DNA from: a virus
Taxonomy: Duplodnaviria; Heunggongvirae; Uroviricota; Caudoviricetes
IMG/VR virus record: IMGVR_UViG_3300011952_000007
Direction: 5' to 3' (one strand)
Length of the DNA: 11,564 nucleotides
Each line of letters begins with the position of its first letter. The first letter of the stretch is position 1. This document shows positions 4,641 through 9,615 of this stretch, piece by piece. The notes beneath the pieces were generated by a model, which saw only the letters and a list, made by a program, of their open reading frames with translations, was not told where the DNA came from and made no database searches. The translations under genes were made by a program, and so were the position numbers.

Positions 4641-5061
4641 GCCGCTTCCCTCTGCCCATCAAGCTGATCCGCCAGATCCCAGCGCGCTATAATTGCCATT
4701 GCCTCGCGCCGGTAGGAATACATCAGTTCTTCGCACTCAGGGCTNNNNNNNNNNNNNNNNNNNNNNNNNNNNNNNNNNNNNNNNNNNNNNNNNNNNNNNN
4801 NNNNNNNNNNNNNNNNNNNNNNNNNNNNNNNNNNNNGTAGGAATCCATCAGTTCTTCGAACTCAGGGCTGTCTTTAGCAGCCTCCAGCACTTCCTGACGA
4901 ACGCCTTTGCCTGTTACAACGTCGAAAGTTGAGGACAGTTGATGAAGTCGGATGCTCTCAATCAGTTCAACTTGTCGGTCATATAGCTGTTCTGACAGGC
5001 GGTAGTCCTTGTCGAATGCCAGCATGATTTTTTGAAGATTTTTCTGCTGATTAACGTTCAT
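4637..5061 (-). CDS. Hypothetical protein immediately upstream of recE (interrupted by 92-nt N run; may be one gene or two tandem paralogs)
   Basis: N-terminal part MNVNQQKNLQKIMLAFDKDYRLSEQ...SPEFEELMDSY starts at ATG 5061-5059 behind GGGAGGG. A separate frame after the gap reads ...SPECEELMYSYRREAMAIIARWDLADQLDGQREAA and ends with TGA 4639-4637 overlapping the recE ATG. The two visible parts are in different frames if the gap is literally 92 nt. Confidence 0.45.
4712..4869. repeat. 33-bp near-identical direct repeat flanking the N run (4712-4744 and 4837-4869)
   Basis: gtaggaatacatcagttcttcgcactcagggct versus gtaggaatccatcagttcttcgaactcagggct: 31/33 identical, offset 125 bp, both within coding sequence (SPECEELMYSY / SPEFEELMDSY). 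Confidence 0.8.
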
Positions 5062-6108: not shown

Positions 6109-6339
6109 ATGAGCGATAACGGACATTTCGATTTCAAAAAGCACTGGCTTGCACTTACTCCGGATGAGCGTGAAGCCTTCGCACAGGAAGCCGGAACGAC
6201 GAGTCACTATATCCAGACTCACTTAACAGGTAAGCGCAAAATGCCAGGTAAAGTATTGATGAATGGGCTTTTTAAAGCCTGCAAAACAAGACAATGGCTG
6301 CGCTCAAAAGCAGAACTGGCATACTTCTTCTACTCATGA
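6109..6339 (+). CDS. Cro-like HTH DNA-binding regulator (76 aa)
   Basis: Divergent from the repressor and first gene after the pR-like promoter. HTH-like segment EREAFAQEAGTTSHYIQTHLTGKRKMPGKVL. Family assignment is from position and motif only. Confidence 0.55.
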   Translation: MSDNGHFDFKKHWLALTPDEREAFAQEAGTTSHYIQTHLTGKRKMPGKVLMNGLFKACKTRQWLRSKAELAYFFYS

Positions 6340-6360: not shown

Positions 6361-6384
6361 AGACCGCCACCCGGCGGTCTTTTC
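6361..6384 (+). terminator. Intrinsic terminator after the Cro-like gene (tR1-like position)
   Basis: AGACCGCC-accc-GGCGGTCT perfect 8-bp stem followed by TTTT. Confidence 0.6.
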
Positions 6385-6394
6385 ATATCTATTC

Positions 6395-6410
6395 GTACCT
6401 CAAAGGTAAT
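6395..6410. promoter_or_regulatory. Operator-like site (gTACC-tcaaa-GGTAAT) just downstream of the terminator
   Basis: Same half-site and spacing as the other operators; 16 bp upstream of a candidate -35 TTGATC (6427-6432). Confidence 0.4.
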
Positions 6411-6487
6411 AAAAAACCAAATCTGGTTGATCAAATTTTCCAATTGTGCAAAATAGCCAATATCAATAACAAAAAGAGGCGGAAAAA

Positions 6488-6700
6488 TTGAAGATAGTAA
6501 CCAGAATGGAGGCCGCAAAAGCCGGGTTAAATCGCTATTTCACAGGAAAGCGGTGCCGTCACGGCCATCTCTCTGAAAGGTATGTTCTGAACGGAACATG
6601 TGTTGAATGTGCAATGAATAGCGCCAACCGCCATCGTAATGAATTTGCTTGTGCACTAAAGAGTGCAAGAGGGGAAACCTATGGCAAGCAGCTGGATTAA
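6488..6700 (+). CDS. Small zinc-finger-like protein (C-x-H-x-H ... C-x-x-C)
   Basis: KRCRHGHLSERYVLNGTCVECA contains Cys/His ligands. TTG start at 6488 has AAGAGG 8 nt upstream; ATG 6506 is an alternative. The 3' end overlaps the replication gene by 20 nt. Confidence 0.4.
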   Translation: MKIVTRMEAAKAGLNRYFTGKRCRHGHLSERYVLNGTCVECAMNSANRHRNEFACALKSARGETYGKQLD

Positions 6701-7511
6701 GGTTGAAGTTATCACTCCTGATAAACCTGAAATTTTTCAGATAGCAGAAATTCTGGGTATTGATCCAGATGCTGTTCTTGGAAAGCTGGTTCGTATATGG
6801 GCATGGGCTGACCAGCAAACAATAGACGGTAACGCTGGCAGCGTTACAAAAGGAGTACTTGATAGACTCGCTTTTATTACAGGATTTGCTGACGCCCTCA
6901 TTAGCGTCGGATGGCTTGCTTATCATGACGGCAAACTAATTCTTCCAAACTTTGAGCGACACAATGGAGAATCATCGAAAAAACGTGCACTTACGAATAG
7001 AAGAGTGGCAGAGCATCGAAAACGAGTAACGCAAAAAGTAACGCCAACAGCGTTACAAAAGGAGTTACCAGAGGAAGAGGAAGAGGAAGATATATATAAA
7101 ACCCCACACATAGCGCACGTGCGCGAGGGTGCTCCGACCAGTGAAGCGAACGGTATGCCGTTGCAGGTGGCTGAACCTGAATTTCTGGATGGCCTGAGTG
7201 AACCCATCGGGAAATTTCCGATGACCGATGGCTGGCATCCGTCGCCGGATTTTCGACGGCGTGCTGCGCTGTGGGGAACGGCCCTGCCGGAACCGGAATT
7301 TACACCTGCTGAACTTGCTGCATTCCGGGATTACTGGATGGCTGAGGGCAAAGTGTTCACGCAGGTTCAGTGGGAACAAAAATTCGCCAGGCACGTAAAT
7401 CATATCAGGGGAAAATCAAAAAACGCCGGGAAAAGCGATGAGCTTGACTGGAATAACACTGACTGGATAGAAGGGGTGTGGGATGAAATCAACTCCAGAA
7501 CTTCTCAATGA
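6681..7511 (+). CDS. Replication initiator (O-like position) with DnaT-like C-terminal domain
   Basis: C-terminal GKFPMTDGWHPSPDFRRRAALWGTALPEPEFTPAELAAFRDYWMAEGKVFTQVQWEQKFARHV matches E. coli DnaT as recalled ([29 protein letters not shown]...[20 protein letters not shown]). GAGGGG Shine-Dalgarno before ATG 6681. A Glu-rich linker (EEEEEED) separates the two halves. Confidence 0.8.
   Translation: MASSWIKVEVITPDKPEIFQIAEILGIDPDAVLGKLVRIWAWADQQTIDGNAGSVTKGVLDRLAFITGFADALISVGWLAYHDGKLILPNFERHNGESSKKRALTNRRVAEHRKRVTQKVTPTALQKELPEEEEEEDIYKTPHIAHVREGAPTSEANGMPLQVAEPEFLDGLSEPIGKFPMTDGWHPSPDFRRRAALWGTALPEPEFTPAELAAFRDYWMAEGKVFTQVQWEQKFARHVNHIRGKSKNAGKSDELDWNNTDWIEGVWDEINSRTSQ
6829..7065. repeat. 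Two copies of palindrome GTAACGC-N5-GCGTTAC followed by AAAAGGAGT (6829-6856 and 7038-7065), plus an extra AGTAACGC (7025-7032)
   Basis: An exact 18-bp direct repeat cagcgttacaaaaggagt at 6839-6856 and 7048-7065, read in different frames in the two copies. Followed by (GAGGAA)x3 and atatatataaaa (7071-7100). Confidence 0.55.
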
Positions 7512-8321
7512 GTACGATCGCTTACGTGAGCATGGTGTTGCTGTGCATGAAGAGCGGCGTGACAGCAATGGCAAAAAGGAGCAGGTCGCTAGAATTTTCA
7601 ATGAACTATTTGTCCAGTTACAGGCTGCATTTCCCGCAAGCGTTTCGACCATAAGGGAGCAGAACAAACTTAATGAATTCCGTAAGCAATGGATGCTTGC
7701 GTTTCTGGAGAATGGGATCACTACAATGGAACAGGTTAACGCTGGTATGCGCCACGCCCGCGCCAGTGAGTCTCCGTTCTGGCCGTCGCCAGGGCAATTC
7801 ATCAAGTGGTGTAAAGACAGCAAGATGGTTCTTGGCGTCACCATTGACGATGTGATGGCAGAGTTTCACCGGTACAGCAAGGAAAAAAGTTTATATCCTG
7901 GTGGTCCCGAANNNNNNNNNNCGTTTCTGGCCGCCTGCGCCAGCTGCGCGTCGGTGACCTGATCGGCGTAGCTGCCAAACGCCCCTACCGCGTTGCTGTA
8001 GTTAAGCGCCAGCTTAGCGAGATTGAGGTTGAGAAACACGCGCGCAGGCTGCTCGATGATTGGGCGAAAAAGGTGGCTTCCGGACAGCAGATACCCGATC
8101 CGGTGATCAGCATACAGGCAAAGCCAGAACCCATGAGTACGCCTCCGGACACAGGGAGAGACGTTTACCATCCACCAGGGCGAAGTTTCGGGTGCATGCC
8201 TAACGCCGCCACCCTTGGGGGAATAACACCGGCGCAGTGGCTGATGGAGGAATACAGGCGGGGGAAGGCCGGAGGAGTTATTAAGAAAGGCAGGTTTTAT
8301 CAAGTAATACCAGCGCGATAG
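7483..8321 (+). CDS. Lambda P-like replication protein, helicase loader (interrupted by N run 7912-7921)
   Basis: KEQVARIFNELFVQLQAAFPASVSTIREQNKLNEFRKQWMLAFLENGITTMEQVNAGMRHARASESPFWPSPGQFIKWC matches lambda P as recalled (QVAQIINGVFSQLLATFPASLANRDQNEVNEIRRQWVLAFRENGITTMEQVNAGMRVARRQNRPFLPSPGQFVAWC). After the gap an open frame continues to TAG 8319-8321 and contains GQQIPDPV (lambda P GEAIPEPV). Confidence 0.75.
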
Positions 8322-9379: not shown

Positions 9380-9615
9380 GCATCCGAACTGAACATGGAT
9401 TTGGTCCGTCAACGGTCGAAGTCGAATGGCTTGATGATTGCCCTAAGTGCCAGCACGGCAAAGCCAAGGTAACAGGATGGTCGGTAACCAAAGATTCTTT
9501 GAGGGCGGGTGATGAGGCCGTCTGTTCCAAATGCGGTCACANNNNNNNNNNCGAAATCGATGCTGATGGAGAGAATGCCTGGGTGGAATGGGACGAAATC
9601 GAGGAGGCACAATGA
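9376..9615 (+). CDS. Zinc-ribbon protein (CPKC ... CSKC), interrupted by N run 9542-9551
   Basis: Two CxxC pairs (DCPKCQHG and VCSKCGH). AAGGAG Shine-Dalgarno 7 nt before ATG 9376. ATGA overlap with the next gene at 9612-9615. Confidence 0.55.
   Translation: MSIRTEHGFGPSTVEVEWLDDCPKCQHGKAKVTGWSVTKDSLRAGDEAVCSKCGHXXXXEIDADGENAWVEWDEIEEAQ

Follow-up and report, generated by a model that had tools for sequence, protein, structure and literature searches.

A candidate replication origin inside the initiator gene of a phage related to Escherichia phage TL-2011b

The window, i.e., the whole stretch of 11,564 nucleotides (nt) analysed here, comes from the IMG/VR record IMGVR_UViG_3300011952_000007 of a virus of the class Caudoviricetes and carries on its plus strand, at 6681–7511, a gene coding for a protein of 276 amino acids (aa), which matches phrog_2509, 'replication initiation protein' (1.5e-129). 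The segment comprising approximately positions 6829–7101 is probably the replication origin of the phage, lying inside the gene of its own initiator, and the best reading of its layout, drawn by analogy, is an origin of the lambda/SPP1 style that nevertheless falls outside the lambda O family. The computed evidence pointing to an origin consists of selection at the DNA level, the phasing of the sites, their change together with the N-terminal domain (N-domain) of the initiator, the low-stability tract beside them, and the pairing of the C-terminal domain (C-domain) with a helicase loader; the initiator would be the binder of the sites, unwinding would take place at 7070–7101, and replication would start here. 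Such an origin had been proposed in a first-pass annotation of this DNA, and the proposal is supported by the present analysis, with binding by the initiator and firing of the origin as its predicted consequences.

Repeats and Palindromes in the Window

The core of the candidate origin is formed by two 19-bp palindromes, which as such belong to neither strand. Site 1, at 6829–6847, is a perfect palindrome, GTAACGC-TGGCA-GCGTTAC, followed by AAAAGGAGT up to 6856, and site 2, at 7038–7056, has the sequence GTAACGC-CAACA-GCGTTAC and is likewise followed by AAAAGGAGT, up to 7065; the distance between the two is 209 bp. Site 2 is flanked by single half-sites. A left one, GTAACGC, is found on the plus strand at 7026–7032, within AGTAACGC (7025–7032), 12 bp upstream of site 2 and in the same orientation, and a right one, GAGTTAC, with one mismatch, on the minus strand at 7062–7068, 12 bp beyond the right arm of site 2. 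The region of site 2 is therefore a > > < < array with exact 12-bp steps (7026, 7038, 7050, 7062), ending 2 bp before a run of 21 purines on the plus strand, AGAGGAAGAGGAAGAGGAAGA (7070–7090), which contains (GAGGAA)x3 at 7071–7088 and encodes a Glu-rich linker. The purine tract is followed by the AT-only tract ATATATATAAAA of 12 nt (7090–7101, no strand assigned).

The palindromes and repeats are genuine signals at the DNA level and not a product of chance. The exact 18-bp repeat CAGCGTTACAAAAGGAGT, present at 6839–6856 and 7048–7065, did not occur in two copies in any of 200 shuffled sequences, even with two mismatches allowed, and two perfect 19-bp palindromes were observed against 0.00 expected from the shuffles. 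Of the exact 7-mer GTAACGC/GCGTTAC the window has six copies where 1.15 would be expected, a count of six being reached in 0 of 200 shuffles, and five of these copies fall within 6829–7056, i.e., in less than 230 bp. All the strings quoted in the first-pass annotation were found in their places, the AT tract ending at 7101, one base further than given there; repeat analysis of the region placed its palindromes and repeat beyond the shuffle expectation and added the right half-site at 7062–7068, which is new here. The window has runs of N at 318–327, 1434–1443, 4745–4836, 7912–7921, and 9542–9551, which show that the assembly is gapped or joined. In a 99%-identical, complete 39.6-kb genome of a phage, both palindromes and a purine run of at least 20 nt are present only in the initiator gene, and no second repeat cluster or similar tract was found anywhere in that genome.

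Occurrence and Spacing of the Motif in Related Loci

DNA encoding homologues of the N-domain was collected from phage records, IMG/VR contigs, and bacterial genomes (one per species), and after removal of near-duplicates 66 non-redundant loci were left, whose hosts comprise Enterobacteria, Pseudomonas, Xanthomonas, Ralstonia, Planctomycetes, Verrucomicrobia, and others. In these loci the exact 7-mer has a density of 8.36 per kb between positions −60 and +470 of the gene, against 0.138 per kb in the flanks. Its copies cluster at the gene offsets +148/+160, corresponding to site 1, and from +340 to +426, corresponding to site 2. The site 1 palindrome lies at offset +148 in most of the relatives, and the site 2 palindrome, situated at +357 in the window, is found in them between +337 and +403. 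The spacing of neighbouring half-sites is also regular, in most cases 11–12 bp: 12 bp in 69 convergent (><) pairs, 12 bp in 26 direct (>>) pairs, and 11–12 bp in 15 direct pairs of the opposite orientation (<<); other neighbours are 23–24 bp apart. A spacing of about one helical turn is as expected for protein subunits bound along one face of the DNA. A comparison of the helical phase of the two sites was uninformative, the resultant length being ca. 0.5 for all periods of 10–12 bp.

The family of N-domains is large, comprising 7184 representatives of 50%-identity clusters at E-values up to 1e-3. N-domains of 50–60% identity accompanied by the GTAACGC half-site are found in Planctomycetes, in Verrucomicrobia, including Akkermansia, and in one metagenome-assembled genome of Ignavibacteria, a host breadth unusually wide for a single initiator/site specificity. 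The search of a plasmid collection matched only two records with this initiator, CP088505.1 and NC_015459.1 (52 kb and 41 kb), and gave no independent proof of an autonomous replicon; in both the gene lies among those of cII, NinB, Rha, and a Mu-like transposase, and the two are probably circular phage or phage-plasmid genomes.

Constraint on the DNA Rather than on the Protein

Both sites are at the same time coding sequences, site 1 beginning at codon position 2 of the open reading frame (ORF) 6681–7511 and being read GNAGSVT, and site 2 beginning at codon position 1 and being read VTPTALQ. In most relatives the two palindromes share a frame, while in the lineage of the window the second one is frame-shifted with its DNA retained. 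The last right half-site of the relatives is an exact GCGTTAC read as A-L-P, and within one and the same gene GCGTTAC is translated both as x-V-T and as A-L-x, i.e., in two frames, in 39 of 59 loci. The codons used are nearly invariant when set against backgrounds taken from the rough codon usage of those same loci. In site 1, Gly is encoded by GGT in 54 of 55 cases (background 21%), Asn by AAC in 55 of 55 (60%), Ser by AGC in 33 of 33 (26%), and Val by GTT in 44 of 47 (25%). In the A-L-P copy, Ala is encoded by GCG in all 40 cases (30%) and Leu by TTA in 39 of 40 (5.5%), and Arg in the tract following the last half-site is encoded by AGA in 54 of 54 (6.7%). Among 45 colinear sequences, the third-position information amounts to 1.48–1.50 bits at G50 and V55, against 0.02–0.33 bits at other conserved four-fold codons.

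The shared frame of the copies in most relatives, where they encode GNAxSVT-like peptides, is what would be seen if the repeat were a by-product of a duplicated peptide GNAxSVT, or had arisen by chance, and the DNA had no role. That explanation is scarcely credible, being already contradicted by the codon, third-position, and two-frame data: the codons are near-invariant despite four- or six-fold freedom and include ones rare in high-GC hosts, third positions are free at other conserved four-fold codons, copy 2 of the window and the general A-L-P copy stand in another frame, and in the epsilon15-type genes described below site 1 lies elsewhere in the protein. The two frames, the fixed synonymous sites, and the forced rare codons together mean that neither a peptide repeat nor chance can explain the repeats. 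By these sequence comparisons the sites are conserved through DNA and not through protein, which bears out, by the same three features, the earlier claim that an 18-bp repeat read in different frames reflects conservation at the DNA level.

The palindromes could also act in RNA, as mRNA hairpins or by terminating antisense transcription, since each of them can form a stem of 7–9 bp, and palindrome 2, with TTTTTGCGTT after it on the minus strand, has a terminator-like score there. This is very improbable, because the half-sites in direct orientation (the >> and << pairs counted above) cannot pair, the arm sequence itself and not mere complementarity is kept across copies and phyla, and both copies in CBW1004C have a different inner base in the right arm, with the pair broken. 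Moreover, the T-run with its terminator-like signal is not kept in the relatives, and no Rfam family matches. The number of hits in a promoter scan was at the level of chance.

The N-domain of the Initiator as the Putative Binder of the Sites

The protein encoded at 6681–7511 comprises a putative origin-binding N-domain (aa 1 to ca. 120), an acidic linker, and a DnaT-like C-domain (aa 179–249, nt 7215–7427; Pfam DnaT PF17948, 6.5e-19). Residues 171–252 align to the DnaT chains 6AEP, 4OU6, and 2RU8 in the PDB with E-values of 1e-17 to 1e-21, and the name given to the gene by PGAP is 'DnaT-like ssDNA-binding domain-containing protein'. No family was matched by the N-domain (the first ca. 130 residues) in Pfam or NCBIfam, nor in a Pfam search of 13 family members at E-values up to 1. 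Its AlphaFold model, with a predicted local distance difference test score (pLDDT) of 72, consists of helices followed by a beta-hairpin. A fold search against the PDB gave only weak matches of the winged-helix type, and the weak matches in BFVD were to phage replisome organisers (E ~0.01–0.04), DnaD-like proteins, and DUF1376 proteins; this weak fold similarity to the replisome-organiser family (Phage_rep_org_N; SPP1 G38P type) is not accompanied by sequence-level membership of the N-domain in it. In the predicted model, the part of the N-domain encoded by site 1 is a loop connecting two helices, and site 2 with the adjoining tract codes for the last helix at its end and for a linker modelled with low confidence (pLDDT <50, residues 124–129), so that the DNA signals would be placed where the protein best tolerates constraint on its sequence.

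The sequence of the sites changes with the N-domain. In the Ralstonia phage Raharianne, whose N-domain is 39% identical, GTAGACG-N6-CGTCTAC is found at aa 51 and 123, and at aa 55 the same arms, 4 nt apart, form an additional overlapping palindrome. In a Vibrio phage there are TGTCACA-N7-TGTGACA at aa 119 and arms of the GTCAC/GTGAC type at site 1. In epsilon15 (33% identity), GTCCGC-N7-GCGGAC is located at +65 and +344 (locus L015, 1566–1584 and 1845–1863), and of 22 non-redundant loci in a separate epsilon15-type set (L179–L258), 16 have this palindrome at +65 and again within +341 to +364, with site 1 at a different place in the protein. The curated epsilon15 record has repressor and IHF sites annotated nearby and no origin. 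Since the palindromes change with the N-domain, and since neighbouring genes differ widely between loci, leaving the N-domain as the sole constant partner, the N-domain is the simplest candidate for their binder. The identity of the half-site across very distant hosts would also suit a host factor, or another phage protein, as the one recognising the sites. That is an improbable alternative given the same variety of neighbours and the fact that, when N-domain identity falls to 33–39%, the palindromes differ in sequence but not in layout; besides, the sites, compared by eye with the literature consensus, do not match the DnaA box.

The Purine and AT Tract as a Candidate Unwinding Element

The purine and AT tract at 7070–7101 is a candidate part of a DNA-unwinding element. 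The 30-mer at 7071–7101 is the least stable one of the gene (z=2.2), and the gene-wide minimum of stability, again scored as a 30-mer, falls within +360..+470 in 91% of the 66 loci, with z reaching 4.3 in high-GC hosts. The position of the tract is linked to that of the sites: in the relatives it is placed 2–3 bp beyond the last half-site, and in 43 loci the longest purine run (median 20 nt) begins 9–10 nt past the start of the last right half-site. A Glu-rich linker encoded over the GA tract had already been suggested, and it now turns out to coincide with this conserved low-stability element. The tract is also polymorphic in length, as follows from the number of GAGGAA copies, three in the window (EEEEEE) and two in TL-2011b (EEEE; L001, 5670–5681), and from the purine run of 29 nt in the Klebsiella phage ST11-OXA245phi3.2.

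Several observations limit the support for an origin at this place. The 30-mer at 7071–7101 is not among the 15 least stable of the 11.5-kb window, the intergenic region 6380–6500 is similarly unstable, the AT tract of 12 nt is modest by itself, and the palindromes are 209 bp apart, unlike the contiguous iteron array of lambda. Of the AT-rich tract invoked in the first-pass annotation there stands the lowest stability within the gene, while its 12 nt do not make it an extreme of the window. The cumulative GC skew of the complete relative genome has its extremes near the ends of the record and not at the gene, and is uninformative for a mosaic phage of 40 kb.

The initiator might bind the sites and use them as autoregulatory operators or transcriptional roadblocks, or for handcuffing in copy-number control, with the origin located elsewhere. 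Inverted half-iterons act as operators in iteron plasmids, and site 1 lies ca. 200 bp from the low-stability tract. Furthermore, Rac-like members of the family have a third perfect palindrome 32–33 bp before the start codon, abutting the Shine-Dalgarno sequence (L004, 1195–1213; L005, 1469–1487), possibly for autoregulation; this upstream palindrome is absent from the window. Operators, however, need no tight coupling of the last half-site to a low-stability purine tract, such as is seen in 91% of the loci, no other repeat cluster or similar tract is available in the complete phage genome, and the equivalent layout is an origin in lambda and SPP1. A purely regulatory role of the sites is for these reasons unlikely. 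The two roles can coexist, and a regulatory function is possible for some of the sites of the candidate origin.

Genetic Context and Modular Structure

The initiator gene is followed by a gene for a lambda-P-like helicase loader (7483–7962, plus strand; PF06992 2.1e-38, phrog_109), which overlaps its end; together with the phrog_2509 match, this neighbour agrees with the identification of the 6681–7511 product as a replication initiator made in the first-pass annotation. The 3' part of the P-like gene is interrupted by the run of N at 7912–7921, and the similarity to TL-2011b ends at 7911. The P-like homologues of TL-2011b and ZX5 have 258 aa, and the 159-aa ORF 7483–7962 is probably artefactual, owing to the gap. 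A divergent gene for a helix-turn-helix repressor and a cro-like gene lie upstream of the initiator gene. An ORF of 70 aa (6488–6700; phrog_1081, no known function) is situated directly upstream and overlaps the start of the initiator gene; a small hypothetical ORF occupies the matching position in Enterobacter and Klebsiella phages, and most other relatives are devoid of it. Just past the cro-like gene (6109–6339) lies a strong terminator-like hairpin, AGACCGCC-ACCC-GGCGGTCT, with a T-rich tail (6361–6380), and after it the segment 6380–6500 of 25–33% GC, the pair resembling a region of the tR1/nutR type.

The region is 98–99% identical to the Escherichia phages TL-2011b, vB_EcoP_ZX5, and HEMP4, and at least 80% of the gene is carried by 113 of 5426 complete E. 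coli genomes, under the annotation 'DnaT-like ssDNA-binding domain-containing protein'. None of the records inspected has an origin annotated at this gene.

Among relatives the C-domain varies, being of the DnaT type in 18 of 62, and the downstream gene, scored in 58 loci, codes for a P-like protein in 19, a DnaC/IstB-like one in 13, and a DnaB-like one in 10. Of the 18 DnaT-type C-domains, 14 are accompanied by a P-like neighbour (Fisher 7e-6, a value not corrected for phylogeny). The AT tract, at 7092–7105, is where homology to other phages and other E. coli prophages is interrupted: the matches of Enterobacter and Klebsiella phages stop at ca. 7105, and Actinobacillus phage matches and those of many E. 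coli prophages start at 7092–7099. The start and stop of the matches at the AT tract indicate that the N-domain with its sites and the C-domain recombine as separate modules.

Proposed Mechanism and Significance

In the proposed course of initiation, dimers of the N-domain, presumably of a winged-helix-like fold, would bind the 19-bp palindromes, and the flanking half-sites, one helical turn (12 bp) apart, would admit further subunits to form the > > < < array at 7026–7068. Site 1, 209 bp upstream, would be a second anchor, which may join the main array by looping or wrapping of the DNA. The nucleoprotein complex would then destabilise the neighbouring purine-rich/AT tract (7070–7101), and the DnaT-like C-domain would hold the single-stranded DNA and/or dock the P-like loader with the host DnaB, whereupon theta replication would start. 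A generalisation is put forward tentatively, namely that the phage and prophage replicons with this N-domain, which has no Pfam model and is represented in Proteobacteria, Planctomycetes, and Verrucomicrobia, form a large family with an undescribed type of origin, in which a near-universal GTAACGC half-site is embedded in two reading frames, distal and proximal clusters ca. 200 bp apart open a polypurine tract by looping or wrapping, and the DnaT-like domain captures the strand. If true, this two-cluster architecture would differ from the O-some of lambda with its contiguous iterons. In the literature searched, namely papers accessible without subscription, this origin was not found described.

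These results give a concrete candidate origin for a module present in the E. coli genomes counted above, which include relatives of TL-2011b, a phage that came from an outbreak strain of enterohaemorrhagic E. coli O103:H25, and in thousands of phage/prophage protein clusters. In the public annotations viewed, the gene is named only 'DnaT-like' or 'hypothetical'. The region is also an unusually clean case of overlapping codes, in which a presumed protein-binding DNA motif sets the codons, including the very rare TTA and AGA in high-GC genomes, and at the same time shapes the conserved peptide GNAxSVT ... ALPxEE, which is of relevance to gene recoding and to analyses of selection. The pairs of N-domains and sites (of the GTAACGC, GTCCGC, GTAGACG, and GTCAC types) make up a ready collection in which the joint change of initiator and origin specificity can be studied.

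Comparison with Known Replication Systems

E. coli DnaT (primosomal protein I) shares with the window protein only the C-terminal ssDNA-binding domain; the score for the DnaT equivalog NF002770 is 93.4 bits, below its cut-off of 201, with aa 172–252 as the only aligned part. DnaT acts in PriA-dependent restart and not at a sequence-specific origin.

The oriJ of the Rac prophage of E. coli K-12 was considered as an experimental anchor and dropped, the N-domain of Rac YdaU (DUF1376) being not homologous (BLASTP E-value 0.89); the 'ydaU' gene that belongs to the family of the window is that of a Rac-like prophage of strain 442/2. The K-12 MG1655 ydaU (b1359; L259, 3761–4063, offsets 141–443) has direct repeats of its own, approximately GCAGATGTTCAA, in five copies, the last four of which are spaced by 33, 33, and 12 bp, and these are possibly another candidate in-gene iteron origin, perhaps oriJ itself. 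A DnaC-like YdaV follows the K-12 ydaU, as it does in the Rac-like prophage of locus L004, whose YdaU is of the window family.

In iteron plasmids, replicated by winged-helix Rep proteins such as RepA, pi, and RepE, initiator-specific repeats spaced by about one helical turn lie beside an unwinding element. The iterons are direct repeats of 17–22 bp in non-coding DNA; inverted versions also exist. A winged-helix binding domain is plausible for the window N-domain as well. No iteron-plasmid Rep family (Rep_3/RepA-type) was matched in Pfam or NCBIfam, and the sites of the window type differ from iterons in being mostly inverted and located inside a coding sequence.

Lambda and SPP1 are the experimentally established precedents with which an in-gene origin can be compared by analogy. 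In SPP1, oriL is located in gene 38, coding for the replisome organiser G38P (the loader being G39P and the helicase G40P), so that the repeats recognised by the origin binder are situated in its own gene, beside an AT-rich unwinding element. SPP1 differs in having direct repeats and a second origin, oriR, elsewhere; in the complete relative genome no second cluster was found.

The first-pass annotation had pointed to lambda ori, with its iterons and AT-rich region inside O. The O iterons lie at a nearly equal offset and likewise have a purine/A-rich tract after them. Lambda has four contiguous 18-bp iterons, each an inverted repeat, at offsets 348–432 of O, and the array of site 2 in the window is at 345–388. 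In lambda the origin lies in the initiator gene where the N-domain, which binds DNA, meets the C-domain, which binds the loader; in the window, site 2 and the tract fall at aa 115–140, between the coding parts of the N-domain and the DnaT-like domain, and the loader gene (PF06992) comes next, as does P in lambda. Both have inverted-repeat sites of 18–19 bp each, followed directly by a purine/A-rich tract, which in the window would be easily melted, and both have recombination joints there, at the AT tract in the window and just past iteron 4 in the lambda record. Repeated sites of dyad symmetry, characteristic of the lambda type, are represented in the window by the two palindromes and two half-sites, all predicted binding sites, and are kept in the 66 relatives. 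No homology to lambda O was detected, either as a Pfam match (Phage_rep_O) or by hhalign, in which the N-domain profile gave a probability of 0.2% against lambda O. The window differs further in its two clusters ca. 209 bp apart, built of 7-bp half-sites at steps of 11–12 bp, where lambda has four adjoining iterons and the Stx phages (933W/P27 origins) have six, in its DnaT-like C-domain, and in its presumed unwinding tract, which is a GA-rich purine run with only 12 bp of AT.

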